A DNA stretch of 64,000 nucleotides from a virus. The stretch is taken from positions 1 to 64,000 of IMG/VR virus record IMGVR_UViG_3300045988_081419; one strand, 5' to 3'. Position numbers and translations under genes: made by a program. Below the pieces are notes generated by a model. It saw only the letters and a list, made by a program, of their open reading frames with translations, was not told the DNA's origin and ran no database searches. Shown here piece by piece: positions 1 through 55,375 of this stretch (its first letter is position 1; each line of letters opens with the position of its first letter).

Positions 1-47
1 CCAAAATGTTATATAAACACTTCCAGAACTGAGTACAGTGCCGTGAA

Positions 48-151
48 GTGGTCGCTGATATTACAATTACGATTAGAAGCCACATTATTCAGATTCCAAT
101 AGAACAACTCGGTATTCGTACCATTATTCCAATTCGTACCCAATAGGGTAA
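48..151 (-). repeat. DGR template repeat (TR), non-coding copy of VR
   Basis: Aligns to 396..499 at constant offset 348. 19 of 31 coding-strand A positions differ from VR but only 2 of 73 non-A positions. Reads as AAT-rich pseudo-codons. Confidence 0.8.
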
Positions 152-380
152 ATACTGGACTCTCTTTTTATTACCGAGAATCCAGTATTTCATGTGTACT
201 GTTGGTGGCAAAGAATACTCATGTGATAATGTCTTTGACCGCTTTAACCCGAAATTTTACCTGTCTTAGTGGAGCAGTACTCTGTTGCAACCACTAATGA
301 CATTATACCCTTAACAAAGCGTTTTGTAAAGAAGATTTCTTGTTTCTCCTTCCCTCAAATATTTAATTTTACAAATGATG

Positions 381-2270
381 TTACTTTCTGCAAAGGCGGC
401 CGCCGATACCCCAACTACGATGAGAAGCCACACCATTCAGACTCCAACCGAACAACCCGGCATTCGTACCACCATTCCAACGCGCACCCAATAGGGCAAT
501 ATAGTTGTTATTGCTACTCATATTGACATAATAGTAATCACCTACTGGTTTATTACTGTCACCACCTACTAAAGAAGTCATGTAAGCAAAATCACAGTCT
601 TCTGAGAAACCAAAGGCTTTTACATAACCTTCTTTCGTAGCACAACTAAATCCACAAGGAATGTAGTCTGTAATGGTATCAGAGAAAGCTTTACTTCCAT
701 CCTGCCAGTATGCTTCGTTACAATCACTTCCGGCAGAATGTTTTCTCATAAATCCATCAACAAACTTCCAGATATTTCCGAAAGGATTCTTAACACCACG
801 ATACACAGGAACTTTAACATCATACTGAGTACCATTAGAGTGTGTGTATTTAACATCAATAGTACCACTACCATTTCCAAGTTCTGTATTAACAGGGTTA
901 GGAACACTGTCATTCTTATTTGTTACATAGGGCATTCCTGTAACACCAGAACCGAATAAAGGAATGTTCTGGATATTAAATGAAGCAAACTCTACCAAGA
1001 ATAACATTTGCTCTGCACTTGCAATAGTGAAGTCAAGCTGTTGCCAACCTGTTCCTCTATTAGCACAAGTCTTTCTAATTGCGTCTCTTGTAAGAGAGTT
1101 ATTTTTTGTTGCTCCCTCAGTAGCACCACTAGCAGGTTTAGCACCTGCAATAGAAGAAAACTTAATACCAGTGTAAGGACTAGAGCCAAGTGTGATAGTG
1201 TTGTCATTCTTGTCATAACCAGAAGTGTTCTCAAGACAACCATCATTCTCACCAATTAAATAGTAAGGAACAATCTTATCACCTTTCTTAAATGTAGGGT
1301 GAACTTTAAAGCCACTTCTAGGTGTTGGACTAATAAGGTCTACCCACTTAGTCATGTGGTAACCTTTTACTTGATATGTTTCATCTACCTGCTTTTCAAG
1401 TCTGATAGGGATTCTCTTATAGAAAAACATAGGCTGTTTAACCATACACTGTACTTTTGTACCAATAGGGTCATCACCAATCTGTTTCTCTAAAGCACCT
1501 GTTTCTGTATATCCGTCTTCTCCAAAGTAAGCTAAAATTGTTCCGTCATCTTTTACGATACATCTTTTTCTCTCACCATATACAGGAGAATTGTCATAGT
1601 CTTTTCCACCAGACCAGTACTTGTTATCTCCAAGTCTTTTTATAGTGTTGTTATCAAGGTCTACTTCAACACCAAGAACTCCCTCTCCAAGTGTTCCCAT
1701 GTGAACACTGAGGTCAATTACTTGCTGAGAAAGGTTAGAGAAGTTTACCTCTTTACACAATCTTGTCATAATACCATTTGAAATACTTGCGATTGCAAGG
1801 TTATGTTTTCCACTATTTGTAGAAGTTGCAAGAGTGTACTTAACCACCTTACGCTTAGTTGTTTCAGCAGGTGAACGATTGTCTTTAAAGAAGTTTGCCA
1901 CTGTAGAAGAGGACTGTTGATTACCCTCCACTTTAAGTGTTTCATTATAAGACACTACATCTTCCCACACTTGCAAATACACTGTTCCACTTGTAGCAGG
2001 AATACTAAGACCTGTACACTCTACCATGAAACCATCAACTACTAAAGAACACTTATCTCCAATTTTTAATGTTCCATCAGCAAAAGTAATTTTACTAAGG
2101 TCTGTAATACCATCACCTAAAAGGTTTTTGATTGCTCTTCTAAGCATGGTCTTTTGTACTTCCTGCACTTCATTCATTTCTACCTCTAACAGAGGTTTTT
2201 CAGCACCAAAGACAACACTGGAAACTCCTGCGTTGTCTTTATAGTTTGAATATTTGTCAAAACTTGCCAT
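381..2270 (-). CDS. Tail fibre / receptor-binding protein, DGR target (C-type-lectin-like C-terminus)
   Basis: 629-aa ORF, last gene of the tail module. N-terminus has LLEVEMNEVQEVQ as seen in fibre/baseplate proteins. C-terminal W/G-rich segment is the VR. Confidence 0.75.
   Translation of the reverse strand: MASFDKYSNYKDNAGVSSVVFGAEKPLLEVEMNEVQEVQKTMLRRAIKNLLGDGITDLSKITFADGTLKIGDKCSLVVDGFMVECTGLSIPATSGTVYLQVWEDVVSYNETLKVEGNQQSSSTVANFFKDNRSPAETTKRKVVKYTLATSTNSGKHNLAIASISNGIMTRLCKEVNFSNLSQQVIDLSVHMGTLGEGVLGVEVDLDNNTIKRLGDNKYWSGGKDYDNSPVYGERKRCIVKDDGTILAYFGEDGYTETGALEKQIGDDPIGTKVQCMVKQPMFFYKRIPIRLEKQVDETYQVKGYHMTKWVDLISPTPRSGFKVHPTFKKGDKIVPYYLIGENDGCLENTSGYDKNDNTITLGSSPYTGIKFSSIAGAKPASGATEGATKNNSLTRDAIRKTCANRGTGWQQLDFTIASAEQMLFLVEFASFNIQNIPLFGSGVTGMPYVTNKNDSVPNPVNTELGNGSGTIDVKYTHSNGTQYDVKVPVYRGVKNPFGNIWKFVDGFMRKHSAGSDCNEAYWQDGSKAFSDTITDYIPCGFSCATKEGYVKAFGFSEDCDFAYMTSLVGGDSNKPVGDYYYVNMSSNNNYIALLGARWNGGTNAGLFGWSLNGVASHRSWGIGGRLCRK
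396..499 (-). repeat. DGR variable repeat (VR) inside the 3' end of CDS 381..2270
   Basis: Encodes ALLGARWNGGTNAGLFGWSLNGVASHRSWGIGG. All but 2 differences from TR fall at TR adenines (17 A>G, 2 A>C). GC-rich GGCGGCCGCC block at its 3' end (IMH-like). Confidence 0.8.
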
Positions 2271-2288
2271 CTTTAAATCCTCCTTTGA

Positions 2289-2873
2289 TTATACTAAGTT
2301 CAGAGTGAACCTCATGATTCTCTCAATCGTCATTTCCTCAGTTTTTGTAATAACTGCATGATGACGTTTGTTAATCATAATTCCAGAGTCTTTTGCAGTT
2401 GTAGCATTACCACCAAAGATACCAAACTCTCTCCAAACACCATTACAGTCAGCCGGACCGAAAGTGTGAGAGATTTGCAGAATGTTTGTAGGTGTCTGAG
2501 TCTCCTCAAATTCTGGTGTGAGGAACTTAATCTCGTCTGCTCCGATTGCTACACGACCTAACTCTGCTGTAAGTTTGTTGGCAGAAATGTCCGGGTTAGG
2601 AAGTGAAGAATCCCAACTTGAAGCACCACTACCAACAGCCCAGTACTGAATACCTTTGTAACCACTCTGCTGTTTAAGCAAACTCATTACAAGATTTAAG
2701 AAGCTGTTCACAACAAGGTTATGACCTACTCTCTCTTCCACTCTTCCATCAGCATAATGGATTCGGTCAAGAACCTCACCTGTCATGTGTACTTGATGAC
2801 CCTCTTTTGACATTGTTTTTAAATTCATGATTTCTTTGTCCTCCTGTTTAAAATTTGTATTATCATTAAACAT
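2289..2873 (-). CDS. Hypothetical tail/baseplate-associated protein
   Basis: 194-aa ORF between tailspike and fibre; AAGGAGG about 10 nt upstream of the ATG; no diagnostic motif. Confidence 0.5.
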   Translation of the reverse strand: MFNDNTNFKQEDKEIMNLKTMSKEGHQVHMTGEVLDRIHYADGRVEERVGHNLVVNSFLNLVMSLLKQQSGYKGIQYWAVGSGASSWDSSLPNPDISANKLTAELGRVAIGADEIKFLTPEFEETQTPTNILQISHTFGPADCNGVWREFGIFGGNATTAKDSGIMINKRHHAVITKTEEMTIERIMRFTLNLV

Positions 2874-2915
2874 AGTTTATTGATACCTCCTTTATTATAA
2901 TATATTACTTTAAAG

Positions 2916-4376
2916 TTATGCTATTTTTTTATAAAAGTAAATAGTAGAAGAACCAACTAGTTGACTTCCTATAAGTTCCCAAGTTCCTCCGTAAGACAAA
3001 CCTATTTGTTGTGCATTATTTATTGTAGAAGTAATAATAAACCCTATTTCTGGTTTTAAAAGAAGATTATATATATTTGTATTTTTATCTAAAACGTACA
3101 TTTTACCTTTAAGTACTTTAAGAAGGTAGTCTTTTTGGTCATATTCTGCTGTTACAATACCATTCTCTGAATAAATACCGCCATTTATAAATACATAAGT
3201 ACCAATAGAATGTATAAAAGTAAATCTACCTTTAGTGTTCGTAATAAAATCTAATGCAGGAAGACATTTTACAATAGAAGAATTTATCCCTTTTGGAGAA
3301 TTTATAAGATAATGTTTTGACTTGGTTACTCCTCCATCTGTCCAAATATCCTCATTTGTATTTAAAAGAGTTATATTAAGATTACTTGCATAGTCTTCCA
3401 CATAAATATATGAAAATCCACTTTCAATTCTATTAGGAAAACTGTTGAAATCTTCCTCAGTGAATCCAAAATAATATTGACAACACCTACTTAATTTACC
3501 TGTAAAAATTAAATCGCTTAAAGAAGTTTCTGCGTATAAACCTGCATATCCACACTGGTCTACTGTAATATTATTTAATTTATATTGTCCTGTTCCTGTA
3601 CATACTATTCCCCATTTAGAGTTTGATTCAATTCTAGTATTAGAAACAGTACCTCCTACTTGCAATTTTAATCCAACCTCGCAACCCCATGTTTTACTAT
3701 TGGTAAGAATACTATCCACACCTAAGTCTATTCCCACTTTACAACCAAAAACTACTATATTATCCAAAATAGAGTAGTATGGAACTTTAAAACCAATTCC
3801 AGAAAAGTTGCTAATAAAAATATTAGAGAATCTACTTAATCCCTCATTATTATTGCACACAATAGCATTTACATTCTCATATAAATGACTTAATTCATAA
3901 TGAAAATGTGGATTTATAGGAGAAGATTCTTCTTCATTAGTTATTACATGTGAACTATTAGAAAAGAAGCAGATACCTTCTATACTGAATTTACAAGTGC
4001 TTACTTCGATAAGAGTTATATTAGGAGTATTTTTTGTAATAAACTCAGTAGAACCGTACCCTAATCTTGGAATATTACTAACAATTTTAGTATCACCTAG
4101 TAAAGTCAAAGGCTTACTAATTTTAATACCTTTATTCATTAAATATTTTCCCTTTGGGAAATATAAAGTATCAAAGTCATTAGATTTATTTATAATATCC
4201 TGTAGTTTATCTGATATATCTGTATTTCCAGTATTATCTAAGTTAAAAGTATTAACTACATTTATCCAACCTGTATTGTGGTTAATAGCCTCCTCAACAC
4301 CATCTTGCAAATTGTCATAAAGGTCCTTATTCATAACAGTAACACCATCTTGTGTATCAATTCTTCTATAAGACAT
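2916..4376 (-). CDS. Right-handed beta-helix (pectate-lyase-fold) tailspike / depolymerase
   Basis: N-terminal NVVNTFNLDNTGNTDISDKLQDIINKS..LYFPKGKYL typical of the pectate_lyase_3 family, followed by periodic N/G/I-rich beta-helix-like repeats. Confidence 0.65.
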   Translation of the reverse strand: MSYRRIDTQDGVTVMNKDLYDNLQDGVEEAINHNTGWINVVNTFNLDNTGNTDISDKLQDIINKSNDFDTLYFPKGKYLMNKGIKISKPLTLLGDTKIVSNIPRLGYGSTEFITKNTPNITLIEVSTCKFSIEGICFFSNSSHVITNEEESSPINPHFHYELSHLYENVNAIVCNNNEGLSRFSNIFISNFSGIGFKVPYYSILDNIVVFGCKVGIDLGVDSILTNSKTWGCEVGLKLQVGGTVSNTRIESNSKWGIVCTGTGQYKLNNITVDQCGYAGLYAETSLSDLIFTGKLSRCCQYYFGFTEEDFNSFPNRIESGFSYIYVEDYASNLNITLLNTNEDIWTDGGVTKSKHYLINSPKGINSSIVKCLPALDFITNTKGRFTFIHSIGTYVFINGGIYSENGIVTAEYDQKDYLLKVLKGKMYVLDKNTNIYNLLLKPEIGFIITSTINNAQQIGLSYGGTWELIGSQLVGSSTIYFYKKIA

Positions 4377-4390
4377 TTCTTTACCTCCTT

Positions 4391-6217
4391 TTAATAATGA
4401 ATGGTGGTTACAACACCATTCCGAATAACTTTATCATACACCATTTCCTCAATTAGCACAAGTCCAACATCAGAGTTACTTATATTAGTCATAAGACCTT
4501 GATTAAGGACGTTTCCAGTGTTAAGACAAGGATAATACATAAAGAGTCCAACAGTTTGTTTCAATGCCTCTTTATCACCTGTTTTTTCAACCCTTGCACT
4601 CTCTTCTACAGAGTGAGTAATAAAATCTTCCACAGTATCAAGTTCCTCAAACTCATTTGTAATAAGACTGTCATTAAGTAAATCTTTTGTGTTTAAACTT
4701 TCACTCCAATTTTTAGTGAACTGTCTGTTAAGTTGTGCAACCTCTTTTTCTGTGTAAGAGATTGTGTCACTAAACTCTTCCGCAATTCCCTCACTGTCTT
4801 TATCAAACACAGCGTTTCCAAACACTGCTTGCATGAATCTTGATGTGCCGGGAGTAGGAAGTGCAATTCTAGGAATACTACCACTGACTTCAATAGATTG
4901 TGTTGTAGTAATACTCTCTTCGTCTTCCTCAACACTACTAATAACACCAATTTCTTCTTTCAAGTTCTCTACTACATAGTCTTCAAAATCATCTGACCTT
5001 GTTTCAATGTTAAAAGCAAACTTTTGATTGAGTAAAAAATCTGGGTTATTAAGGACAGGTCTGTAGGTCTTTGTAATATCAGAACAAATACTTCCACTCT
5101 CTTCCTTAATCTCTTTAATGGTGTCTGTGTAAGAGTCTGTAAACCACTTAAATCCCTCTTTGCCAAATATTGCGTTACCGAGAACACTATAAGCAAATAG
5201 GGAACTATCATCTTCTGGAACACCAATAGAATAAAATGTACCAGACTCTTTAAGGTTGTCATAAGCCTTTTCAATAATATTTTCAAAGACTCTGACCCTC
5301 ACTAAATCATCTACCGGGGAAGTGGTGATAGTGGTAGATACCAATTCATCAGTGTCCATATAATCACTTAGAAAGAGGTCATCATTTAATTCCATAAATG
5401 GGTCATTGAGTGTTGGTCTTAAATACTGGTGAGATTTCCTGCTGTCCATATTACCTTGTTCAAGAAAGTGATTGATAATCTTATCAGTAAACCAATCCAC
5501 ATCAACATCATAGTAATAAGACTCACTTAAAATAATACTTGAGTTAAGACCTAACTCAAAATTGTTAATTGTAGGGAAGAAACCCTCACCTTTTTGGCTT
5601 ACTACTCTTGCTTCTTCATTTCTTACATCTGTTACATAAATCATTTCCTCGTCTTTTGTTTTAAGCCTTGCAAGTTCATAAAACAGATAAGAAAAGATAA
5701 TTGTCACATTGATAAAGAAAGGAAGAAACTCCTTGATAATCCTTAAAAGCTGTTCTCTGTCTGGAATATCTCTTGCACCTTGTTGGTCGTAGTCCATTTC
5801 CAGATTAATATCAATGTGATAGTCCTCTAAAAAATCTGGACTAATAATTACCTCCGACTTTACATCAGAGATAATAGAGGTCAAGTATTCAATGACAGTA
5901 GTAGCACCTTTTCTGGCATAAAGGTCTCCGAGAATAGGTAACAGCTTTCTCAAGTACAGTTCTGGAAGACCATTAAAAATCTCAAGACCATACTGACTGA
6001 ATACTACACTCAAGACTTCTTTAGGGGTTTTCTCTGGGTCATTTAAGTCAAGGATTCCATTTACCTCCTCAATGACTTTAGAGAAACCTCCGTCACTAAG
6101 GACATTGAGGTATCTCTTTAAAGCAAAGTCCACCATTGAGTCGGCATTGTGATAAACCGGAGGGAGAGTGTTATACAGTTTTTCATTAAATTGTTCTCCT
6201 GCTAATAACTTTGACAT
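4391..6217 (-). CDS. Baseplate wedge protein (P2 gpI-like N-terminus) with long C-terminal extension
   Basis: Directly downstream of the gpJ-like gene. N-terminal LPPVYHNAD...DPEKTPKEVLSVVFSQYGLEI...LLPILGDLY resembles tail protein I. Confidence 0.5.
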   Translation of the reverse strand: MSKLLAGEQFNEKLYNTLPPVYHNADSMVDFALKRYLNVLSDGGFSKVIEEVNGILDLNDPEKTPKEVLSVVFSQYGLEIFNGLPELYLRKLLPILGDLYARKGATTVIEYLTSIISDVKSEVIISPDFLEDYHIDINLEMDYDQQGARDIPDREQLLRIIKEFLPFFINVTIIFSYLFYELARLKTKDEEMIYVTDVRNEEARVVSQKGEGFFPTINNFELGLNSSIILSESYYYDVDVDWFTDKIINHFLEQGNMDSRKSHQYLRPTLNDPFMELNDDLFLSDYMDTDELVSTTITTSPVDDLVRVRVFENIIEKAYDNLKESGTFYSIGVPEDDSSLFAYSVLGNAIFGKEGFKWFTDSYTDTIKEIKEESGSICSDITKTYRPVLNNPDFLLNQKFAFNIETRSDDFEDYVVENLKEEIGVISSVEEDEESITTTQSIEVSGSIPRIALPTPGTSRFMQAVFGNAVFDKDSEGIAEEFSDTISYTEKEVAQLNRQFTKNWSESLNTKDLLNDSLITNEFEELDTVEDFITHSVEESARVEKTGDKEALKQTVGLFMYYPCLNTGNVLNQGLMTNISNSDVGLVLIEEMVYDKVIRNGVVTTIHY

Positions 6218-6218
6218 A

Positions 6219-7697
6219 CTATCCCTCCTTTACTTTTCCACCAGTCACATTCAGTTTTAATTCCTTTAAGGTAATAATCTTACTGTCTTTGTCTGCTGTG
6301 ATAATATCACTATCTGGGGAAATGATACGGAATGACTCAACACCTGCAAAAGTCTGTTTTATCTCATGTTCAAGGTCAGACTTCACAAACTTGTCTCCAA
6401 ACACTAAATTGCCATAAGCAAAGAATGTGTTCTCTACATAATCAGTCACATATCCAACAATGGTCTCCTTATCATAGTCATCATCAATAATCAAGTTTGC
6501 AGTAATAGTGATAGGATATTCCTCATGCTTTTTAAACTCATAAGAAGTTCCCGGAATAATTCTTGAGTTGAAGAAGTCATTTACCCTTTTGAGAAGTGCT
6601 TCGTCCATAGTGTAACCCTCTCTCATAAGATAAAAGACATTCATCTTTAACTTCACAACTTCGTCTGAGATTCCTACAGAACTGAGAACCTCATAGAAGT
6701 TGATTCTTAAAAGGTCTGCATAGTCCTGTGCTGTGATTGCTCTGTCTTGAGTTCTGAAAGCCGCAGGAGCATTTTCCCGAATTTCTTCAATGCTCTCTTT
6801 TTCATGTCCTAAGACAGTCGGACCAGAGGGGTTAAATGTTCTGTCCACATAAGCAATGCTTTCGTCAAACTCTGTAATAGTGCTAGGCTTTACATTACCA
6901 ATAGAACCTCCACCTACTCTGTAAGAAGCAATAATACCATTGTCATATACATCTGGAATTTTACCTCTAGCACCACTACCAAACTCAATGTAGCAAGTAT
7001 CAAATTCGTCCACTGTCACTGTGTAGTGTCTGCTCTCTTCGTCACTGTCAATAAAGGTGTCTACTTGAGTCCACACTTCATATCCATCACCCTCGTTAAT
7101 CATCAACTGAATAGAGTTTGTAAGAACTTCCTTGTAGTTCAGCTTAAAGGACTGATAAGGCTGTCCATTAGAAGAACCTAAAAGGTCTTCATTAACTGAT
7201 GTACCTTGAATTACATTGACAGAGTACTTATAAGAGTCATCTTCATTCTTTTCATCACCCAACATTCCTGCCGGAATAATAAGGTCATCTTCTGTCTCAA
7301 AGTAAACAGTAACCATGTCAGTGCTATCTTTAGTGTGTACAACACTTCCTTTAGGAATTACAATGTCTCTGTCCATTTCATTACCAAGCACAAACACTTG
7401 AGGTACAACACTGGCAGTCTGGTTTTTTGCAATATACCTTAACTGTCTTGCAAGTAACACCGCAATTCTTCTATCTTGTGTGGTAGGAAGAAAACAGTCA
7501 TTTGCAATTACATCTGTGTATAAACTACAAATATCCAGACCATTTGCAAGGCACTCTAAAATAACAATACCTGCGTCAGTCTGGCTTGTGTCAGTGTACT
7601 CCGGCATACGCTTTTGTAATTCCTGTATAAGCATAGTTCTATATGCTTCATAATCTCTACTTGTGTAATCAATTCCTTGTGTTGGTTTTCTACTCAT
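6219..7697 (-). CDS. Baseplate J-like protein (gpJ / T4 gp6 family)
   Basis: 492 aa; follows the gp25-like gene with an 8-nt overlap; size and position typical of Baseplate_J. Confidence 0.65.
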   Translation of the reverse strand: MSRKPTQGIDYTSRDYEAYRTMLIQELQKRMPEYTDTSQTDAGIVILECLANGLDICSLYTDVIANDCFLPTTQDRRIAVLLARQLRYIAKNQTASVVPQVFVLGNEMDRDIVIPKGSVVHTKDSTDMVTVYFETEDDLIIPAGMLGDEKNEDDSYKYSVNVIQGTSVNEDLLGSSNGQPYQSFKLNYKEVLTNSIQLMINEGDGYEVWTQVDTFIDSDEESRHYTVTVDEFDTCYIEFGSGARGKIPDVYDNGIIASYRVGGGSIGNVKPSTITEFDESIAYVDRTFNPSGPTVLGHEKESIEEIRENAPAAFRTQDRAITAQDYADLLRINFYEVLSSVGISDEVVKLKMNVFYLMREGYTMDEALLKRVNDFFNSRIIPGTSYEFKKHEEYPITITANLIIDDDYDKETIVGYVTDYVENTFFAYGNLVFGDKFVKSDLEHEIKQTFAGVESFRIISPDSDIITADKDSKIITLKELKLNVTGGKVKEG

Positions 7698-8103
7698 TTG
7701 TTATCTCACCTACCTCAAATTTTGCTGTGTACCAAGTCTCATACTTGATGATTTTAAAAGTTATCGTTGCAAAAAGGAAACTACCTTTATTAGAGGTCTC
7801 TACCGAAAACTGAATATCGTCCTCAGTAGCTTGCACCCTCTCTTCAAGTCTTTCTATTGCGTCCACAATTCTAGCTTTTGCAATAGCTTGTAGTGTTTCA
7901 TCATTGGGTTCAAACACCACTGTAATGAGTTCTGAGTAAATATCGGGTTCCATTACCCTTTGGAGATAATGTGTTCCGAAAATCTGTTTCAGACTTTCAA
8001 CAATGTGTGTGGGGTTAGAAGCACTTGTAGTAGACATTACCACTCCCCCTTGTGGTCCGACTCTAAAAGGAAAACTGATTCCTGTATATCCACTCTTCGG
8101 CAT
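7690..8103 (-). CDS. Baseplate wedge protein, gp25/gpW-like
   Basis: 137 aa with GISFPFRV...GG and LQRVMEPDIYS, the gp25-like signature. Confidence 0.7.
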   Translation of the reverse strand: MPKSGYTGISFPFRVGPQGGVVMSTTSASNPTHIVESLKQIFGTHYLQRVMEPDIYSELITVVFEPNDETLQAIAKARIVDAIERLEERVQATEDDIQFSVETSNKGSFLFATITFKIIKYETWYTAKFEVGEITNE

Positions 8104-8120
8104 TTTAATGACCTCCTTTC

Positions 8121-8666
8121 TTATACATTAGGTGCGTCTACACGAACATCAGCGTGAACAACACCACCACCGTTTTTACCAACATAAGCACCAACATTAC
8201 CTGCACTAAGGTTATAGCAACTTACGTTACCTTGTACTTCAAGTGTACCGAGTATGGTTACTTTGCTATGCTCTATTTTTAAATCACACTCTCCTGCACC
8301 TACATTGATGCTGATAACACCGTCTTTCATAGTGATTGTACAGTCAGCATAATTTATGATTCTCACTTTGTCCTTAGAAGAACCATAGTTAGTACCTAAA
8401 GGTGTGGTGTTCTTCTGCCACCAGTTACCTAAATAAACTGGATAGTTTGGGTTGCCCTTTTCAAAAGCAATCCAAACTGTCTCTTTCTTCTGTGGTAAAC
8501 AAAAGTCTCCACCAGTGTCATAAGCTACTGGCACACATGGTTCACACCATGCACTTTCTACTGTACCACCTAAAACATCTGGTATCTGACACTTTATTCT
8601 ACCTCGTTTTTCTGGGTCATTGTTATTACTAACAATACCTTTATAAAATCCTGCGTATGTTGCCAT
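8121..8666 (-). CDS. Baseplate spike (gpV / gp5 OB-fold) protein
   Basis: YKGIVSNNNDPEKRGRIKCQIPDVLG..ESAWCEPCVP matches the phage_base_V / Gp5 OB-fold N-terminus. Confidence 0.7.
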   Translation of the reverse strand: MATYAGFYKGIVSNNNDPEKRGRIKCQIPDVLGGTVESAWCEPCVPVAYDTGGDFCLPQKKETVWIAFEKGNPNYPVYLGNWWQKNTTPLGTNYGSSKDKVRIINYADCTITMKDGVISINVGAGECDLKIEHSKVTILGTLEVQGNVSCYNLSAGNVGAYVGKNGGGVVHADVRVDAPNV

Positions 8667-8678
8667 ACTACCACCTCT

Positions 8679-9350
8679 TTACGGAATAATAAGTTTAAGA
8701 CCAATAGGTAATCTTCTGTACTGTGATGGACTGATACCATTGGCATTTGCAATCTTAGGATATTGTGCCCCACTACCATAATATTTAGCGGCAACACTCC
8801 ACAAACATTCACCTGCTTTAAGATAGTGGATTCTCTGGGAAACCGGAGCAGGTTTCTTAGCAGGTGGGTCTTTCTTCTTCTCTGGAACTTTTTTGTCCTT
8901 AGAAGATGTGGAAGTGTCCTTTAAAGAGTTTCCAAAGTCTGTCTTGATTAAAGTAGCAGAGTGTGAATATCCATCTTGACTTATCTGCCTTGTAACATCT
9001 TGAACATAATACAGACCAGACAGATACTTGCCAATACCATTGATTCTTACTGTATCTCCGGCAGTGAGTCTAATGGTCTCTTTGGTGGCAATAAACTTTA
9101 ACTGCCCCTCCAAAATATTATACTCAATAGTGTTGTACTTTTTCTCTGCACTACCCACAGAGGACTGAGGGTTTGAGTTACTGGCAGACATATTTCCACC
9201 TTTGTTACCAGAGGGTTTTGAAGAACCACTGCTTGAAGAGGGTTTTTTATTACTACCTCCATTATTACTTGTAGAACTTGAACCACTAGAACCACTGGAA
9301 GTCCATTTACCAGTAGAGGGGTCATAGGTCATTGAACCATTTCGAGCCAT
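8679..9350 (-). CDS. LysM-domain baseplate/tail protein with S/G-rich linker
   Basis: C-terminal YLKAGECLWSVAAKYYGSGAQYPKIANANGI..LPIGLKLIIP is a LysM motif; low-complexity SSGSS N-terminus. Confidence 0.6.
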   Translation of the reverse strand: MARNGSMTYDPSTGKWTSSGSSGSSSTSNNGGSNKKPSSSSGSSKPSGNKGGNMSASNSNPQSSVGSAEKKYNTIEYNILEGQLKFIATKETIRLTAGDTVRINGIGKYLSGLYYVQDVTRQISQDGYSHSATLIKTDFGNSLKDTSTSSKDKKVPEKKKDPPAKKPAPVSQRIHYLKAGECLWSVAAKYYGSGAQYPKIANANGISPSQYRRLPIGLKLIIP

Positions 9351-9368
9351 TAAATCTCACCTCTTTTC

Positions 9369-10208
9369 TTAGTTCCACTTTTTAGTGGTAGGGTTATAGG
9401 TATAAGACCTACCTGCATTATTTGAACCACTATTAGAATTTTTAGTCTTACTGTCTGTAGACCTTGTAGACTTAATCTTAGTGGTAGAAAGTTTCTTGTT
9501 GGAAGAATTGATAACAGAAGAACCAACTTCCACCTGTGCAGACTCTTTAGTAATCTTAGGACTAAAGCTGATTACCTCATGTGGGTAGTTAAGGTAAGTC
9601 AAATCCATTTTCGGAGTGGATAAGTGACCTTTCTTCACATAATAAAATGTGTTACCTACAAGTCTGGCTGTAAATGGATATACTTCATTACCTGCAAGCT
9701 GAGTAATGAAGTCAATATCTGTCTGCTGTGATTGTGTAATAGTCTCCTGCTTTTCAAAGTCATATCCACTCTCTACTACACACTTAAAACCATATTCTTT
9801 TACAATCTTTTGAACCACTTTTGCACTTGTTGTGTCTTTAAAGGTGTTGTCCTTTTTCTTGCGGTTCATTAAGTGAGTGTTATCCATGCAAGTGACAGTG
9901 AGTATAGGACACCCAGACTCTTGAAAGATAATGTCAATCGCCGAGATATATCCCTCAAACTTAACTCTATAGGTAACACCTACCCAACCAAGCTGTACTT
10001 TAATCTTGTTGTCCTCAATGAAGATGTTATCCTCAATATAAAGGAACTCTGGGTCTTGAATCTTGATAACACAAGTGTCAGACCCATCAACTGTTTCCTT
10101 TACTTCAATATTGTTAATACACTGTTTCTTTTCGATACCCAACTTGCTACCATTTATCCACACATCATATTCAATGGCAAGAAGTTCTCCGTTTTTGTAA
10201 CTGGACAC
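9369..10208 (-). CDS. Baseplate hub protein (gpD / gp27-like)
   Basis: 279 aa; sits between the tube-initiator/LysM genes and the spike gene, as in P2-like and CIS loci; call mainly positional. Confidence 0.5.
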   Translation of the reverse strand: MSSYKNGELLAIEYDVWINGSKLGIEKKQCINNIEVKETVDGSDTCVIKIQDPEFLYIEDNIFIEDNKIKVQLGWVGVTYRVKFEGYISAIDIIFQESGCPILTVTCMDNTHLMNRKKKDNTFKDTTSAKVVQKIVKEYGFKCVVESGYDFEKQETITQSQQTDIDFITQLAGNEVYPFTARLVGNTFYYVKKGHLSTPKMDLTYLNYPHEVISFSPKITKESAQVEVGSSVINSSNKKLSTTKIKSTRSTDSKTKNSNSGSNNAGRSYTYNPTTKKWN

Positions 10209-10219
10209 TTTCTCACCCC

Positions 10220-10516
10220 CTAAACACTCACAATCTCAAGAACCTCATTGAAGTCTGGAATAAAAATCTTGTCACCATACTCAATATCAAATTCAGTTCT
10301 GTATTTAGGGTTTGCGTCAAGAATAGCCCATCTTAAAGCACTGATACCATAATACTTATAAGAGATACCATCTAAGGTATCACCCTCTACCCACTCATGT
10401 AGTGTACAGTTTGAAAGGTTAAAACTAAACCTATCTCGCTTTTTGAGGATTGGACTATTGTTACCGTTAATAGTGTAGATAGGTGTATGCAGGTATCTTG
10501 AGTTTTCGTACATCAT
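10220..10516 (-). CDS. LysM-like tail protein X
   Basis: 98 aa; GDTLDGISYKYYGISALRWAILDANP...GDKIFIP is LysM-like. Confidence 0.55.
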   Translation of the reverse strand: MMYENSRYLHTPIYTINGNNSPILKKRDRFSFNLSNCTLHEWVEGDTLDGISYKYYGISALRWAILDANPKYRTEFDIEYGDKIFIPDFNEVLEIVSV

Positions 10517-10965
10517 ACCTTACCCACCTGCCTTAATGTAAGTGAGAACCTTGTCATGGTAGGTCTACCATTACTGTCAAGAATTTCATCATTTACTTTT
10601 AATTTTTTTAGTACACATACCTTTACAAAATACCCATAGGCAAATGTAAAGGTAGGTGGTTTTTTAAAACTTGAAGTATTTATTTCTGGTGGCATAAGTG
10701 CTTCAAAGAACTTCCTTGCAGTGTTTATCTTTCCACTATAAGGTTTATCATACATAAACACCTCTACGGAAAATTCTCTCACTTTACCACCAGAATATTG
10801 TGTTAAGGGGTAACTCATACCCGGTGAGTCAATGTCATTAAATTTAGCTTCCCTCTCATAAGGTACAGAGGTAGGGTTAAACTGGCAGACCAATTTTGCA
10901 TTGGTGCTGTTATTCACAAAATAACACTTTGTTTTAGCGTTACTGTTAGCATTAAATCTACTCAT
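10513..10965 (-). CDS. Tube-initiator-like protein (CIS tube protein N-terminal domain)
   Basis: CQFNPTSVPYEREAKFNDI..SYPLTQYSGGKVREFSVEVFMYD fits the FNP...G...L.L.fD tube-fold pattern; immediately after the tape measure. Confidence 0.6.
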   Translation of the reverse strand: MSRFNANSNAKTKCYFVNNSTNAKLVCQFNPTSVPYEREAKFNDIDSPGMSYPLTQYSGGKVREFSVEVFMYDKPYSGKINTARKFFEALMPPEINTSSFKKPPTFTFAYGYFVKVCVLKKLKVNDEILDSNGRPTMTRFSLTLRQVGKV

Positions 10966-10981
10966 GTATTAACCCTCCTCT

Positions 10982-13900
10982 CTAATAAGCTAACTCTAAA
11001 TCTGAGCCTTTTGCTGTCTTGTAATGAGTCATGTTATTTAATTGTCTTTTTCTTTCAATTATTTCCATGATTCTCTCCGCAAGTCTTTCCGCTTCTTGTT
11101 CAGAAGCTCCGTTTGCTTGAATTACAATAGCACCAGACTGGAAGACTACTGAGTTATCAACATTACCCTCTTGTGTGGTTTGTGTTGTGTTACTGTTTGT
11201 GGTGTAGTAGTTGCCCGGAATAACTGGACTACCACCATCACCATTAGGACTAGGTGTTGGAATGAAAGGCTCTGGGTTATCTGGGTCACTCTCTGGAATG
11301 AATCTAGGTACAGAACCCATAGCAGAAGCAACTCCTGTCAAAGCAGAGGTAAATGTACTTGCAATTCCTGTAAGGAAAGAAGTGTTCATTGAACTGTTAG
11401 AGTTAATGATATTACCTACTTTGTTAGCAAGAACTCCAATCCAACCAGTGTTCTTCTCTAAAGGCATTACTGCTTCTTGACCGTCTTCACCTACACCAAT
11501 GACACTCGGCTTTTCAAATACACCACCTTTAGCATACCATGAAACTCCAATATGAGGGATAGAAGGTGGATTCAAACTAAATGAACCACTGATACTAAAG
11601 TGAGGAAGTTTAATGTGTGGAAGTGATAAGTTAGCACCTGTGAATAAGCTTGAAATCTTACTTATTGCACTAGATACAATACTCTTTGCACTATCCATTA
11701 CACTACTGATTTTACTTTTAGCCGATTCAAATACACTTGAAACAGCACTCTTTATTCCTGCTCCTACACTTGTTATTGTACTCTTAACTGCGTTCCATCC
11801 AGTAGAGACAATACTCTTTATACCATTAGTAACATTTGAAATAGTTGATTTAATAGTATTCCAAATGTTGCTTACTGTACTGGAAATCCCATTTAGAATA
11901 CTTGAGATAGTATTCTTAATCCCATTCCAAGAAGAGGAAATGAAACTTGAGATTCCATTCACAACAGTCATAACAACACTTTTAATAGAGTTCCAGATTG
12001 AAGATACTACATTGTAAGCACTCTGTAATACCGTGCTAACAACATTAAAGATGGCATTAAGTGTAGTAGAGATTACATTCCAAATGCTCTGTAATATTGT
12101 ACTTACAAAGTTAAATATAGCACCAAAAATTGTTTGAACACCTTGCCATATTCTATCTAAATCCCCGGTAAAAATTCCTACAATAATATCAAGAATACCA
12201 CTAATGATGTTCATAATACCACTCATAGCAGAACTTATAATGTTCACTATGGTGTTTACTACAGTTACAATAAAGTTCCAAATTCCTTGAATGATAGAAG
12301 AGATAGTTGAGATAACACCTTGGACTAAAGGTACAAGGACATTTACTAAAAACTCTCCAATAGCAGAGATAGCATTGATGATACCTTGAAAAGCAGGAGT
12401 ACTTGCAATTTCTTGTGCTTTTTGTACTACCCAGTCTTTTACCTTTCCAAAAGCGTCCATAACCATTCCGGCTACTTCTACAACTTTGTCTTTCAAATTC
12501 AAGAAAGCGTCAATCACTGGCTGAATAGCTGTCTTTAAGTTATCCCAGATGGACTGTAATCCATCTTTAAGGGAGTTCCAGATATTCATGCCCTCTTCTT
12601 TCAGTGTTTCCCAAATGCCAGACACTTTCGCTTTAAATTCCTCCCAATGTGTCACAGCATAAGTGATAATAGGTGCTAACACTGCCACAATCGATGCAAC
12701 TACTGGTGCTGATAAACCTGCAAAGAAACTTACAATACCACTACCAATAGCTGACAGTCCAGACATTAAAGTACTTCCCAGTGTGGAAAGACCAGAAGTG
12801 ATTGCAGTACCTAAACCACTACTTAAAAAGGTCGTTACCATTCCACTAATCTTAGGGAAGATAGCACCCAACTTACTTGTTAAGCTACCCGGTGACATTA
12901 AAACACTAAAAGCAGATTTTATAAATCCACCTAACTTAGTAAATGTTGGGAACAGTTTTGATACAAACTTTCCGATACCACCGATAGCTTTACCTACACC
13001 TATAAAGGCTTTCCCGATACTTGCTACAACACCTACCACTTTTGCGAGTTTACCAATTACTGAGTCTAACACTTTAAATGCCCCAAAGAATATAACTGCT
13101 TTAGTAGCGAATTTACCAAAGGACTCACCAAAGGTGTACCATGCGTCAGCGTCTCCACTGGAAAGCAATGAGAAAAAGTCGGTCAACTTATCCAATGCTG
13201 TGTCAATAAAAGTACCCTCAAGGTTAGTCTGTAGACCAGATATAAAATTCTTGATACTCTCACTTACCTCTTTAAATCCTGCAATAAATCCCTCTTTAAA
13301 TAAACCGAATCTATATTTAAGGTCAAGAATTGCTTCAATCAAAGGAAGAACCCCTAACTCTTTCGCTTTTAAGAATGTGTCTTCACTTAGCGTAAATCCA
13401 TCTTCACTATTCCACAATTCTGCTAAGGCTCTACACACTACCATTAACTTCATAAGACCTACAGTAAGGTTATTCCAAAAACCACCCTTACTTTGTAAGT
13501 CTGTCACTACATTCATCATTCCCCCGACACTCATGTTAATAGCATTTTGGGCTGTAGCAAAAGAATTACCTAAATGCTGAACAAAACTTGTGACGAGAGT
13601 TCTCATACCTGCAAAGTCTGTTTTCCATGCTAAGTACATTCCACCCACAGCTAAACCAAGTGGCACTACTCTTGAAGCAATAGCTTTGATACCACCTACA
13701 AGAATACTTCTCATAGAAGCAAAGCTACCACCCATAGCAATGAATACTGTAGAAAGCCCGGACATTGAAGAAACTACTTTAAGTGCAAGACCTGTAAGTG
13801 TTAAAAGAACACCTGCAAATGCTACTAACTGCACTACAAACTTCGCAAGTTTAGGCTGTGTTGTTGTTAGCTTAGTAACCCACCTAATGAAGTTACCAAT

Positions 13901-36662: not shown

Positions 36663-36721
36663 TACACAACCCAAATTATTATATTCCTTTTAAAGTGGAG
36701 TAAAACGATAAAGTCTGTTTG

Positions 36722-36794
36722 TTATCACAACAGGAGTCGAACCTGCAATCTTTTTCTTGGAATGAAAACGTCTTAACCATTTGACTATATGATG
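36722..36794 (-). tRNA. tRNA-Gly(UCC)
   Basis: Acceptor CAUCAUA/UGUGAUA (C1-A72 mismatch), anticodon arm UUUUC-AUUCCAA-GAAAA, T arm GCAGG-UUCGACU-CCUGU; no encoded CCA. Confidence 0.75.
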
Positions 36795-36860
36795 TAAACT
36801 TTATCTACACAACCACTATAGTTACTCTATCATAAGGAAGAAAAACATAAAAGACTTCTT

Positions 36861-36933
36861 TTCATATTGTCGGAATCGAACCAACTACACTTATTTCCCA
36901 AAAATAATGCTCTACCTATTGAGCTAAACATGA
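36861..36933 (-). tRNA. tRNA-Pro(UGG)
   Basis: Acceptor UCAUGUU/AAUAUGA, D arm GCUC-AAUAGGUA-GAGC, anticodon arm UUAUU-UUUGGGA-AAUAA, T arm GUUGG-UUCGAUU-CCGAC. Confidence 0.85.
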
Positions 36934-37021
36934 TGTAATCTTTTATTACACAATCCTTATTTTCTTTAACACTGCTCTCAGCGTGTTTACACTATATCAC
37001 ACTTTCTAAAAGCTGTCAAAA

Positions 37022-37094
37022 CTGCCCTTACTGGATTTGAACCAGTGAAATGCAGGAGTCAAAGTCCTGTGCCTTACCACTTGGCGAAAGGGCA
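37022..37094 (-). tRNA. tRNA-Gln(UUG)
   Basis: Acceptor UGCCCUU/AAGGGCA 7/7, anticodon arm CAGGA-CUUUGAC-UCCUG, T arm ACUGG-UUCAAAU-CCAGU. Confidence 0.8.
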
Positions 37095-37282
37095 ATGAAG
37101 CAGACACTTTATCACGCATTTACCTTACCACTAATGACACTACTGATGTATCACAATGACCTCAGTATGTTATCACCAATGGAACAGTCGAGTGGAAGGG
37201 TAGTCTGCACACCCAATCGGCTTATCCACACATTCAAGTGTGAGAGTGTATGGTGTGGAGAAAGGATTCAAGCCACACCAAG

Positions 37283-37367
37283 TCGGTGAGGTAGGAATTG
37301 AACCTACGTTGTTTCTAATGTCACAGATTTACAGTCTGCTGTCTTCGCCTACTGGACACACTCACCG
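37283..37367 (-). tRNA. tRNA-Tyr(GUA), long-variable-region type
   Basis: Acceptor CGGUGAG/CUCACCG 7/7, anticodon arm GCAGA-CUGUAAA-UCUGU, T arm GUAGG-UUCAAUU-CCUAC. D region and the 15-nt variable region are irregular. Confidence 0.65.
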
Positions 37368-37594
37368 ATTTTAAGTCACTGTGATAGGAAAGTCCGGCTG
37401 TTATACTTCGTTCACACTTCATTGGATAGACTAAAGTGATTTCGGCAACTATCTCCTTGTCTGCTACTCATACATATCCGTCTCGTCTATCAAGACCTTT
37501 CGCTTTGGCAATCAACAAGTTCGTGACTATCAGCATTTTTATTGTAAGTCCTCCACTACTGGAATACCTTACTTAGTCGGCTGACAAGACTAAA

Positions 37595-37667
37595 CTGACT
37601 CAGCAGGACTCGAACCTGCGACTTTCTGATTAACAGTCAGACGTTCTACCAACTGAACTATGAGTCA
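37595..37667 (-). tRNA. tRNA-Asn(GUU)
   Basis: Acceptor UGACUCA/UGAGUCA, D arm GUUC-AGUUGGUA-GAAC, anticodon arm UCUGA-CUGUUAA-UCAGA, T arm GCAGG-UUCGAGU-CCUGC. Confidence 0.9.
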
Positions 37668-37762
37668 TCATGCACACTCATGTAGTTTCCGTTTTCCTAT
37701 TGCTAGCATTGGTCTCTGCACAACTGAGTGTGTGATATAGGAATTTCCTAGGATTCCTATAA

Positions 37763-37838
37763 CTGAGTAGGAAGGTATCGAACCTTCTTTACAACACTGT
37801 TGCAACACAGGTGTTTTCTTCCACAACAAAGCTACTCA
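37763..37838 (-). ncRNA. Aberrant tRNA-like element (canonical acceptor and T arm, degenerate D/anticodon core)
   Basis: Acceptor UGAGUAG/CUACUCA 7/7 and T arm GAAGG-UUCGAUA-CCUUC. The core has no 4-bp D stem, and only AACAC/GUGUU closes a 13-nt loop CUGUGUUGCAACA. Confidence 0.5.
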
Positions 37839-38120
37839 TTAAAGGTAAGTGTCTGTAGGCTTTCCACCTACTTGCAGGTTTGGTAGTTATCGTCTAACTC
37901 ACAAGACCTCTTTTACCCAGTGACTTTTCTGGCAACCTTACGGATTTGTTTCCACTGACTATTGCTACACAGTCTTAACCACATGGGAATATGGGCTGTA
38001 TAACTCATTTCACTTACCAATAGTGGTAAAGGGTACTATCACCTCGCCCTGTTATTATCGGGTGAATTTAGTAGGTACACGCATTACTGCATATTGTGTA
38101 TGACCTCTCTTACCACTAAA

Positions 38121-38208
38121 CGGAGTGTATAGGACTTGAACCTACGCTACGTCTTAACGTACTAGAAGATTAGCAATCTTCCCTCTTCACCAACTTGAGT
38201 AACACTCC
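38121..38208 (-). tRNA. tRNA-Ser(GCU)
   Basis: Acceptor GGAGUGU/ACACUCC, 3-bp D stem, anticodon arm GAAGA-UUGCUAA-UCUUC, variable arm UACGU-UAAG-ACGUA, T arm GUAGG-UUCAAGU-CCUAU. Confidence 0.9.
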
Positions 38209-38407
38209 ATGCTCCACCTTGTTATAGTCGTGGTGGACACCCTGACTTGCAAGTAAAGTTTCTTTCGCTAGGTGCTTCGCATGACTCCACTCGACTTCAT
38301 CACCCTGTAAGTTTTCATTTCTATATCCACCTTTCGATTGACTGCTTACCCAGTGGTGGAATAGGGGAGTTGTTTGTCTTCTCTTGAAGACGATTCACAG
38401 TATAGCA

Positions 38408-51047: not shown

Positions 51048-51617
51048 TTACCCCTTTCTTCTTTCTTTAAACTCTTGATAAGAGTCCTCAAATCCGGGAT
51101 TCACTCTCTTAAAATATGTGATAGTACTGCAATCACTCTCAGCACCTCTACACTTTACACATTGATGTGTTGCTTCTACCTCTACAAACAGTGCATGAGG
51201 TTCAAGCATTTCAATTAAAAACTCGCCAATCTCTGTAGTAAGTTTCTCCTGCAACTGTGGTCTTTTACTAAAGTATTTTACTACTCTAGGAAGTTTTGAC
51301 AAACCAATGATGTTATCACTAGGAACATAACCAATGGTGACTTTGCCGGAGAAAGGTAAAAAGTGGTGTTCACAAGTAGAATTAAAGTCAATGTCTCTTA
51401 CAATCACCATGTCACTTCCATACTCATTAGGAAAGGTAGTCATGGTCTCCTTTAACTCTTTCATGTGTGCATCATTTACATTAGCAAATAACTCATTCAC
51501 CCACATCTTAGAAATTCTAAGTGACGTATTTTTGTTGCTCTCCGTCTTTTCAATCTCAAGAATTTTCATAATTTCTTCAAGATGTTCCTTAATCTTTTCT
51601 ACTTTGTTATTTATCAT
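51048..51617 (-). CDS. folE: GTP cyclohydrolase I
   Basis: CEHHFLPFSGKVTIGYVP and QCVKCRG motifs. Confidence 0.9.
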   Translation of the reverse strand: MINNKVEKIKEHLEEIMKILEIEKTESNKNTSLRISKMWVNELFANVNDAHMKELKETMTTFPNEYGSDMVIVRDIDFNSTCEHHFLPFSGKVTIGYVPSDNIIGLSKLPRVVKYFSKRPQLQEKLTTEIGEFLIEMLEPHALFVEVEATHQCVKCRGAESDCSTITYFKRVNPGFEDSYQEFKERRKG

Positions 51618-53859: not shown

Positions 53860-54264
53860 TTATGTCGCAGGTTGCAGAATATTTCTTAAACTCTCATAGC
53901 TTGGAATGTATTCTGCATAACTGTCTTCTGTCTCCCACAATTTCACGCTTACAAGATAAACATTATCCGGGAGGTTTTGCATAATTGTTTTTCCAATGTC
54001 AACCACCATAATTTCTGCGGTAGGGTTAGGGTAATGGTTATTTAAGTCCTCATGGTCTAATTTATCAACCACATAGTCTTTGACAATCTTCTTGAGGTCT
54101 TTAAAATCCATAATCATTCCTTGCTTCGGACCATCTTTAATGATGGAACCTCCTACTGTAACATCAAGTTTGTAGGAGTGTCCATGAAGATTGTGGCAAG
54201 CACCCTTATAATGAGGTAAGTGGTGACACGCTTCAAATCCAAAGTGTTTTGTAATTGTAAGCAT
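53860..54264 (-). CDS. queD: 6-carboxytetrahydropterin synthase
   Basis: FEACHHLPHYKGACHNLHGHSY His-triad motif. Confidence 0.9.
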   Translation of the reverse strand: MLTITKHFGFEACHHLPHYKGACHNLHGHSYKLDVTVGGSIIKDGPKQGMIMDFKDLKKIVKDYVVDKLDHEDLNNHYPNPTAEIMVVDIGKTIMQNLPDNVYLVSVKLWETEDSYAEYIPSYESLRNILQPAT

Positions 54265-54536: not shown

Positions 54537-54812
54537 TTAATCTACTACGATTCTTGCAATCATAACTGTTTTGTCTCCATCTACATCAGCAGTGTCATAC
54601 CCCGGTCTGATATAGAGAATCTTACCTTTCTGTGCAAAGATACTACTAGCAGTAGCAACAGCCTTAAACATCTGGTTTACACTAGACGCTCCAATGGCTC
54701 TTAACTCAATGTTATGATAACCTGCTTCGTAGGTCTTTACAATACTTCCGGCAGTCTGTCTTGTTGGGGAAGAGCCGGAAACTTTAAGGACTTTTACTTC
54801 TTCTCTAGCCAC
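54537..54812 (-). CDS. SpoVS-family protein (stage V sporulation protein S homologue)
   Basis: LKVSGSSPTRQTAGSI...LRAIGASSVNQMFKAVATA...DVDGDKTVMIARIV aligns along the full length with the pattern of Bacillus SpoVS. Confidence 0.75.
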   Translation of the reverse strand: MAREEVKVLKVSGSSPTRQTAGSIVKTYEAGYHNIELRAIGASSVNQMFKAVATASSIFAQKGKILYIRPGYDTADVDGDKTVMIARIVVD

Positions 54813-54829
54813 GATTATTACCTCCTTTT

Positions 54830-55375
54830 CTACAACTTTACTGCATACTGGTTATCAGAAGCAAGGGTAACACCTAACACTTCATCAAACCTGTTTGGTC
54901 TATCTGGAATGTATCTACCATACTTGATAACTACATTTTCCAACTTCTTTAACACCTCTAAAGTGTCTTTGCTTATTTCTTCTGGATAGTACCCAGTGTA
55001 GATAACAAAGTCATTTTTAACTCCTCTGTCTCTAAAGTAGTGAATAAGCTGTACTACTTCATCAGCCTGTAAAAATGGTTCAAGACCACCTATTACAATA
55101 GCTTCACTTAAAAGTGAGTTCTGGAACATTTTGAAAATGTTCTCATAGTCAACAATAATATCCTCTTGAGAATTAACCCCAGAATTTTGACAAGTACTGC
55201 AAGGAAGATTTACTTCCCTACAGCACTTAAAATCACAAGTAGAAACACCTATGAACATGGAGCATTTCTTGTAATCTTGAAACACCTCTGATTTAATATC
55301 TTTCACTTTGATACTGGCATAGAAGACATTATCACTTAACTTACCCACATTAGAATAAGTCATCATTGAGGTCAT
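54830..55375 (-). CDS. nrdG: Anaerobic ribonucleotide reductase activating protein
   Basis: Small radical-SAM-like protein with Cys cluster TCDFKCC; overlaps and follows nrdD. Confidence 0.65.
   Translation of the reverse strand: MTSMMTYSNVGKLSDNVFYASIKVKDIKSEVFQDYKKCSMFIGVSTCDFKCCREVNLPCSTCQNSGVNSQEDIIVDYENIFKMFQNSLLSEAIVIGGLEPFLQADEVVQLIHYFRDRGVKNDFVIYTGYYPEEISKDTLEVLKKLENVVIKYGRYIPDRPNRFDEVLGVTLASDNQYAVKL

Follow-up and report, generated by a model that had tools for sequence, protein, structure and literature searches.

The stretch of viral DNA described here, positions 1 to 64,000 of IMG/VR virus record IMGVR_UViG_3300045988_081419 (the window, meaning the whole 64-kb stretch), belongs to an uncultivated contractile-tailed phage with a genome of ~86.5 kb, and its left end carries a tail-protein gene together with what is very probably a diversity-generating retroelement (DGR) that rewrites the end of that gene. 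The exact 629-amino-acid (aa) tail protein is also encoded on two public contigs, L001 and L002 (86,613 and 86,517 nucleotides (nt), respectively), which overlap the window over 12,270 and 3,217 nt, each overlap containing a single mismatch (99.99% and 99.97% identity). The window is therefore part of the ~86.5-kb genome that these contigs represent, with window positions 1..12270 corresponding to L001 12270..1, and the sequence beyond window coordinate 1 was read from L001. The elements of the locus are the following.

381..2270, minus strand: target gene, an open reading frame (ORF) for a 629-aa tail protein (PHROG 5302 'tail protein', E = 1.5e-75)
396..499, minus strand: variable repeat (VR), codons 591-625 of the target, a 104-nt ungapped match to the template repeat
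395..404, minus strand: GC-rich palindrome GGCGGCCGCC at the 3' end of VR, codons Gly-Gly-Arg, a putative element of the initiation-of-mutagenic-homing (IMH) type
302..330, minus strand: predicted sigma-70-type promoter for the template RNA, TTTACA-17 nt-TATAAT (−35 at 330-325, −10 at 307-302; 11/12 consensus matches)
48..151, minus strand: template repeat (TR), non-coding, with 31 adenines, most of which fall in AAT triplets when read in the VR frame, found by repeat search and base-by-base comparison
1..47, minus strand: start of the spacer between TR and the reverse transcriptase (RT) gene, the remaining 191 nt lying off-window and taken from L001
L001 12462-13574, in the window's minus-strand direction: RT gene, 370 aa (RVT_1, E = 1.5e-15), starting 192 nt past window coordinate 1

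A search for direct repeats in the first 3 kb of the window returned a single long repeat of 102 nt (50-151 and 398-499, spacing 348). A preliminary description of this DNA, made from the sequence alone, had claimed that the last ~35 codons of the 629-aa fibre ORF recur as a non-coding copy 244 nt downstream, and the coordinates, the repeat and the distance were all reproduced. ORFs overlapping TR are of 40 and 44 aa only; in the VR frame TR reads GTNWNNGTNTELFYWNLNNVASNRNCNISDH, and the target protein itself ends in ...ALLGARWNGGTNAGLFGWSLNGVASHRSWGIGGRLCRK. Base-by-base comparison showed that 19 of the 31 TR adenines are substituted in VR (17 A>G, 2 A>C), as against 2 of the 73 non-adenine positions, precisely the counts given in that description (Fisher exact p = 7.4e-11). 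Both exceptions are T>G changes, at VR window positions 449 and 411 (TR window positions 101 and 63). Scanning both strands of the window and of L001 with an adenine-masked TR revealed no second VR; the runner-up in the window matched at 37/73 non-adenine positions, compared with 71/73 for VR.

No RT was detected within the 64-kb window by tblastn (best E = 3.9). The preliminary description had placed the missing RT just beyond coordinate 1 on the minus strand, and it was found there in the near-identical contigs, its start lying 238 nt after TR. The ORF is intact and contains the motifs GIPIGNYLSQ and YMDD. The motif [I/V/L]GxxxSQ is a signature of DGR RTs, in contrast to the QGxxxSP of retroviral and group II RTs (PMC7826257). 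Alignment to bRT, the RT of the Bordetella phage BPP-1 DGR (PDB 8ub7, a 328-aa chain named 'Reverse transcriptase' that was assigned to bRT from the R74/I181 numbering of PMC7826257), showed conservation at the positions of R74 and I181, the two residues known to promote adenine mutagenesis (PMC7826257). In a phmmer search of the PDB, 8ub7 was the best match (E = 1.3e-34), followed by a group II intron RT (2.6e-13) and, weaker still, retron RTs, and all matches to the NCBIfam group II, retron and Drt models fell far under their cut-offs. The nearest RT of a GenBank phage is that of Psychrobacillus phage Perkons (51% identity), and the nearest among 185,579 representative genomes is from a Clostridiales metagenome-assembled genome (54%).

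Evidence of diversification in nature comes from variants of the same phage. In contig L193, which comes from another sample, 3,889 nt align to this genome; the 19 mismatches all fall in the 104-nt VR, and the 3,785 flanking bases are identical. Simple arithmetic puts the chance of all 19 landing in VR at about 1e-30. Seventeen of the mismatches are at TR adenines, and the remaining two are at the T>G sites of the window, where L193 has the TR base. Given identical flanks and 19 VR changes, diversification must postdate every other mutation in these 3,889 nt. At the protein level, target homologs 95-98% identical to the one described here differ almost only at residues 592-622, and protein P0017 differs from it at 11 residues, all at 597-622 and inside VR. 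In 81 proteins (640 aa) of a sister clade, the 12 columns of highest entropy in the whole protein are the adenine-containing TR codons, and the residues found there are those to which an AAT codon can give rise (N, S, D, T, Y, G, H, A, R, V, I, C, F, L).

The same base specificity was seen when 13 related TR/VR pairs of 104 nt were pooled. Adenines were changed at 253 of 404 positions (181 to G, 40 to T and 32 to C), compared with 8 of 948 for the other bases (C 0/221, G 0/285, T 8/442). Across the 13 lineages, TR has few variable positions (columns 204-211 and 254-255) and VR follows TR at these, whereas every VR differs. The preliminary description had named two findings that would speak against a DGR, a complete genome without any RT and a VR that is invariant in the population or varies at positions unrelated to TR adenines; the RT beyond coordinate 1 and, for VR, L193, P0017, the 81 proteins and the 13 pairs favour a DGR on both counts.

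The leftward extension had been proposed in order to find avd as well as an RT, and here the outcome was divided: the 370-aa RT with its DGR motifs was recovered, and no Avd family appeared among the matches listed (the best 25 of 36 families, the rest being weaker than E = 0.0012) for the RT-flanking ORFs and 49 small ORFs, taken from the window and from the 9.6 kb of L001 beyond it. The 244-nt interval between VR and TR contains no ORF, the ORFs that follow RT have no relevant Pfam match, and a Pfam scan of candidate small ORFs in 10 relatives gave no Avd family among the matches listed. Avd is poorly conserved, and a very divergent one encoded elsewhere could escape such scans. From its sequence, the cassette appears to have the layout target-TR-RT without Avd, and not that of the Avd-dependent BPP-1 type (Architecture B of Wu et al.). 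One further gene adjoins the cassette.

L001 13561-13854, ~1.3 kb past window coordinate 1, minus strand: gene for a 97-aa acidic protein (isoelectric point (pI) 4.3; phrog_18126), overlapping the RT stop codon

Since its gene overlaps the end of RT, the 97-aa protein might be a new DGR accessory factor that replaces Avd. Its homologs follow RT in many loci at only 41-54% RT identity, and in 56 of 79 IMG/VR loci found through the 97-aa protein family alone an RT lies directly upstream. In 21 of the 79 loci, however, there is no RT, and the gene stands directly after an RT-less homolog of the C-type-lectin tail protein (~12 nt away among the loci listed); the gene therefore travels with the tail gene, TR and RT having been inserted between the two. 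Moreover, the protein is acidic, whereas Avd, a small and basic four-helix-bundle protein, binds nucleic acid and has a mean pI of 9.5. The candidate was rejected because these 21 loci keep the gene next to an RT-less tail gene, and an accessory role now seems quite improbable. The homologs always follow the C-type-lectin tail gene, with or without TR and RT between, as would a partner of the tail gene.

The protein that is diversified is encoded by the last gene of a contractile-tail baseplate/tail-fibre module. On its 5' side this module holds genes for the tape measure, the tube, a LysM protein, the spike (Phage_base_V), gp25 and Baseplate_J, and it also includes two large proteins, one of them pectate-lyase-like, and a 194-aa protein. 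The target itself matched nothing in Pfam or NCBIfam, and a direct sequence search of the PDB with the full protein gave no meaningful match. A profile built from 26 diverse C-terminal domains of related DGR loci, in contrast, matched PDB 5vf4 at E = 1.3e-7, VR segment included (...GG.W..G..AG...GxR). This structure is TaqVP, the DGR variable protein of Thermus aquaticus (fold-search table; bioRxiv 10.1101/432187). AlphaFold2 modelling of the full-length target with a shallow alignment gave a predicted local distance difference test (pLDDT) score of 34.5, as compared with a pLDDT of 90.5 and a predicted template-modelling score of 0.88 for residues 380-629 (the last 250) modelled with a 122-sequence alignment. 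In a Foldseek search of the PDB with the C-terminal model, only three matches reached E <= 0.001, and all three were chains of TaqVP 5vf4 (E = 1e-6, probability 1.00). Variants of BPP-1 Mtd (1yu4 and others) ranked next, at probabilities of 0.2-0.66, and classical C-type lectins were at noise level. Among predicted viral structures (BFVD), the best matches were 'tail collar fiber' proteins of uncultured gut phages and crAss-like tail fibres, with a query-normalised TM-score (TMq) of 0.8. Profile and predicted fold thus both support a C-type-lectin fold for residues ~380-629, the scaffold, along with Ig-like ones, on which DGR variable proteins are built, and the resemblance of VR to C-type-lectin-fold DGR targets that the preliminary description had remarked on was borne out by the matches to TaqVP and, after it, to Mtd.

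The promoter hexamers upstream of TR and their 17-nt spacing are identical in 14 of 14 related loci, in which the sequence of the spacer varies. The region from the promoter to the RT start (~500 nt) was analysed with RNAalifold on 12 sequences, yielding a predicted structure in which nested long-range helices between the leader and the spacer that follows TR enclose TR, with a hairpin at each of its edges.

275..283, minus strand: long-range helix 1, 5' arm AGAGUACUG, predicted to pair with UGGUACUCU at L001 12365-12373 (9 bp, 5 compensatory double changes, 97% of cells paired)
254..262, minus strand: long-range helix 2, 5' arm AGGUAAAAU, predicted to pair with AUUUUACCU at L001 12293-12301 (8 bp, 3 compensatory changes, 100% of cells paired)
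194..198, minus strand: long-range helix 3, 5' arm UACAC within the invariant 19-mer TTGCCACCAACAGTACACA, predicted by RNAalifold to pair with GUGUA at L001 12284-12288 (invariant, without covariation)
150..190, minus strand: predicted hairpin at the 5' edge of TR, AAAUACUGGA...UCCAGUAUUU (9 pairs, 100% of cells paired)
18..50, minus strand: predicted hairpin at the 3' edge of TR, CACUUCACGG ... CUGGAAGUG (helix 12; 9 pairs, 100% of cells paired, two with one-sided G-C/G-U changes)

Over the whole predicted structure 98.4% of cells pair, and 15 pairs are changed on both sides, compared with 0-4 when the partners are slid by 1-3 columns. In relatives, the 5'-edge hairpin carries a matched insertion on both arms (ACTTGGA / TCCAAGT). 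More distant RT relatives do not share the leader and spacer motifs at the sequence level, and no Rfam family matches the TR/spacer RNA. In the cryo-EM structure of the BPP-1 system, RNA flanking TR on both sides wraps bRT-Avd, and a distal duplex between upstream and downstream RNA is predicted in most Avd-containing DGRs, with stem-loops after TR (10.1101/2023.10.23.563531). By analogy, the leader-spacer helices may be the natural counterpart, in position and perhaps in function, of the BPP-1 upstream/downstream duplex ('cPRT Stop').

These features can be arranged into a pathway modelled on BPP-1. The promoter, 150 nt upstream of TR, would drive synthesis of an RNA of about 450-500 nt, in which the leader/downstream-spacer helices would enclose TR. 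RT would copy TR into cDNA, primed in cis, misincorporating opposite adenines, and the cDNA would then replace VR. Some ~12 codons would be re-randomised in this way, mostly AAT triplets that can give rise to up to 15 amino acids and to no stop codon. By the same analogy these codons would form part of the surface with which the fibre tip binds its ligand, and receptor specificity would change with them.

Taken together, we put the probability that the cassette formed by 381..2270, TR and RT is a real and active DGR, one that rewrites the fibre tip at template adenines and has the order target-TR-RT without Avd, at about 0.96, and the DGR interpretation of the preliminary description is supported overall. 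Several points weigh on the other side. Near-identical public contigs, not the window itself, are the source of the RT sequence, of most of the spacer and of the 3' arms of helices 1-3, and the helix covariation comes from ~5 distinct lineages of one phage family. No Avd or known accessory gene was found in the ORFs scanned, whereas the biochemically characterised bRT acts as a bRT-Avd complex; the ribonucleoprotein mechanism outlined above is to that degree an extrapolation, and its transcription, cDNA synthesis and homing steps are drawn by analogy with BPP-1. Finally, A>G dominates here, in contrast to bRT-Avd in vitro, where misincorporation of dATP (A>T) is the most frequent outcome (PMC7826257); selection may shape the A>G-dominant spectrum.

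It could also be argued that the TR/VR pair and RT are an inactive relic, left over from a DGR that has ceased to function in this genome. Decay does occur among relatives: seven IMG/VR loci (L110-L113, L172, L175 and L178) keep just the last ~70 codons of RT, flanked by the tail gene and the small acidic gene, and in L191 the RT is split into two ORFs. In addition, two contigs with exactly this VR come from different samples. In the present genome, however, the RT ORF is intact with its catalytic motifs, as are TR, the promoter and the RNA helices, and L193, with its 3,785 identical flanking bases, has nevertheless acquired 19 VR changes, all of which leaves a relic very improbable. Ordinary duplication of the 3' end of the gene, followed by divergence through drift or recombination between fibre alleles and with a coincidental adenine bias, has next to no probability, for although phage fibre genes are recombination hotspots and the downstream copy lies in non-coding DNA, that reading is refuted by the base-specific statistics (0/506 C and G changed vs 253/404 A in the 13 pairs), TR hardly varies and VR is hypervariable only at TR-adenine codons, and an RT of the DGR clade adjoins TR.

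An active DGR leaves two features of the pooled substitutions to be accounted for. The first concerns seven TR adenines (window 149, 137, 113, 109, 56, 52 and 49) at which VR has G in 90 of 91 cells in the 13 relatives, and at which every TR has A. These sites lie in conserved scaffold codons (Ala592, Ala596, Ala604, Gly605, Gly623, Gly624 and Arg625), and selection after mutagenesis can explain them, from which it follows that few cDNAs would yield viable fibres and that a large fraction would be non-viable. Three of these adenines set the end of VR apart from that of TR, GGCGGCCGCC as against AGCGACCAC, a pair of sequences that had been described correctly beforehand. All three differences are at adenines; the VR sites have G in 38 of 39 cells, and the rare relatives that deviate carry the TR base or another base (CAC, AGC or GCC). 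Because the differences are confined to adenines and rare relatives deviate at these very sites, selection for Gly-Gly-Arg explains the palindrome, read as IMH-like in the preliminary description, as well as a fixed IMH/IMH* boundary does; in DGRs such a boundary determines which way information is transferred. Homology between TR and VR stops 0-3 nt past the last adenine.

The second feature is the small class of changes at bases other than adenine, which are T>G without exception (8/442 T vs 0/506 C and G, p = 0.002) and occur in the related loci L005, L006, L190-L192 and L194. In seven of the eight cases the changed T is the 5' neighbour of a TR adenine (Fisher p = 0.003); there is one further T>G, in L194. 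The pattern suggests that RT errs at the template base it copies directly after an adenine. Since RT reads the adenine first and then the adjoining U, mis-extension after a mismatch is a possible cause.

More speculatively, this RT clade may retrohome without a protein partner, with an RNA scaffold of three nested leader-spacer duplexes taking the role of Avd, and with a distinct error signature in which A>G dominates, T>G follows adenine and seven adenines must become G for a viable fibre. We regard this proposal as more doubtful than not by a good measure; if true, it would provide a compact DGR chassis that needs a single protein and follows other mutational rules.

Comparison with the BPP-1 DGR (mtd-avd-TR-brt) reveals a common plan with several departures. 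In both systems a phage receptor-binding protein is diversified at a C-terminal tip that, in the present target, is predicted to have the C-type-lectin fold; TR lies downstream of VR and upstream of RT, and substitution is adenine-specific. The RTs share [I/V/L]GxxxSQ and the R74/I181 equivalents, the 3' end of VR is GC-rich, and the stretches of RNA on either side of TR are predicted to pair with each other. Unlike BPP-1, there is no avd between VR and TR, its place being taken by 244 nt of non-coding DNA with a promoter of its own. The similarity of the RT to bRT is remote (E = 1.3e-34, phmmer), the likeness of the target fold to Mtd is weak (Foldseek probability 0.2-0.66, TMq ~0.37), A>G is the commonest change where A>T is the commonest for bRT-Avd in vitro, and there is no long IMH homology past the last adenine.

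The closest solved structure, TaqVP (5vf4), is the best and only significant relative of the C-terminal domain by both profile and fold, but identity is 12-14%, the TM-score is ~0.5, and TaqVP is bacterial and chromosomal rather than a phage fibre. DGR-targeted tail (collar) fibres of uncultured gut phages, crAss-like phages included (cr55_1, cr6_1 and cr7_1 among others), have the same predicted C-terminal fold (TMq 0.80-0.82), and the DGR RTs of crAss-like phages are 40-44% identical to the one described here; the phage backbone, in contrast, differs from that of the crAss-like and gut phages. DGRs acting on phage tail fibres, Avd-less ones included, are well documented and common, especially in gut viromes. 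The layout is likewise known, since Avd-less TR-RT cassettes were classified by Wu et al. 2018 (NAR 46:11, PMC5758913), in whose scheme 'Architecture A' is a TR-RT core without avd that accounts for 29% of 372 DGRs and in which an RT lineage without avd is noted. The present cassette resembles Architecture A (PMC5758913) in having target, TR and RT on one strand with no Avd, HRDC, MSL or CH1 gene found in the cassette, and it differs from the avd-less lineage 3A (Bacteroides, PMC5758913) in belonging to a phage with Firmicutes-like traits.

These traits lie elsewhere in the genome. All 76 of the 76 ORFs selected as likely genes in the window are on the minus strand, with a coding density of ~88% and a G+C content of 37.6%. 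Public contigs of the same phage begin at different points of the ~86.5-kb genome, consistent with circular permutation or a circular map. Other features of interest are the following.

54540-54812, minus strand: homolog of SpoVS (stage V sporulation protein S)
L001 15421-16854: endolysin with Glucosaminidase, CHAP, CW_7 and LysM domains
36721-38209, minus strand: six tRNA genes, Gly(tcc), Pro(tgg), Gln(ttg), Tyr(gta), Asn(gtt) and Ser(gct)
51051-51617, 53863-54264 and 54833-55375, minus strand: GTP cyclohydrolase I, 6-pyruvoyl-tetrahydropterin synthase (QueD-like) and a radical-SAM 4Fe-4S protein (QueE-like), respectively

SpoVS and the endolysin domains suggest a spore-forming Firmicutes host, and the set of 7-deazaguanine precursor genes suggests that the phage DNA is modified. 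The Asn, Ser and Tyr tRNAs match residues that are frequent at the diversified AAT-derived codons, a correspondence that may be coincidental; tRNA Gly(tcc) reads GGA and GGG, not the GGT produced at diversified codons.

A megablast search of window positions 1-6000 against 50,697 GenBank phage records gave no match. The DGR thus adds a clean example to a kind of system that is well known and common, and its RT is at most 51-54% identical to those of GenBank phages or representative genomes. Its value lies in an isogenic pair of contigs that differ only in VR, an unusually clean natural example, and in dozens of related VRs which, set against one nearly invariant TR, provide a post-selection map of the residues tolerated at each position of the fibre tip. 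The compact Avd-less cassette, made up of a promoter, an RNA of ~450 nt whose predicted structure is supported by covariation and an RT of 370 aa, could help to explain how Avd-less RTs function or to build smaller tools for targeted mutagenesis.

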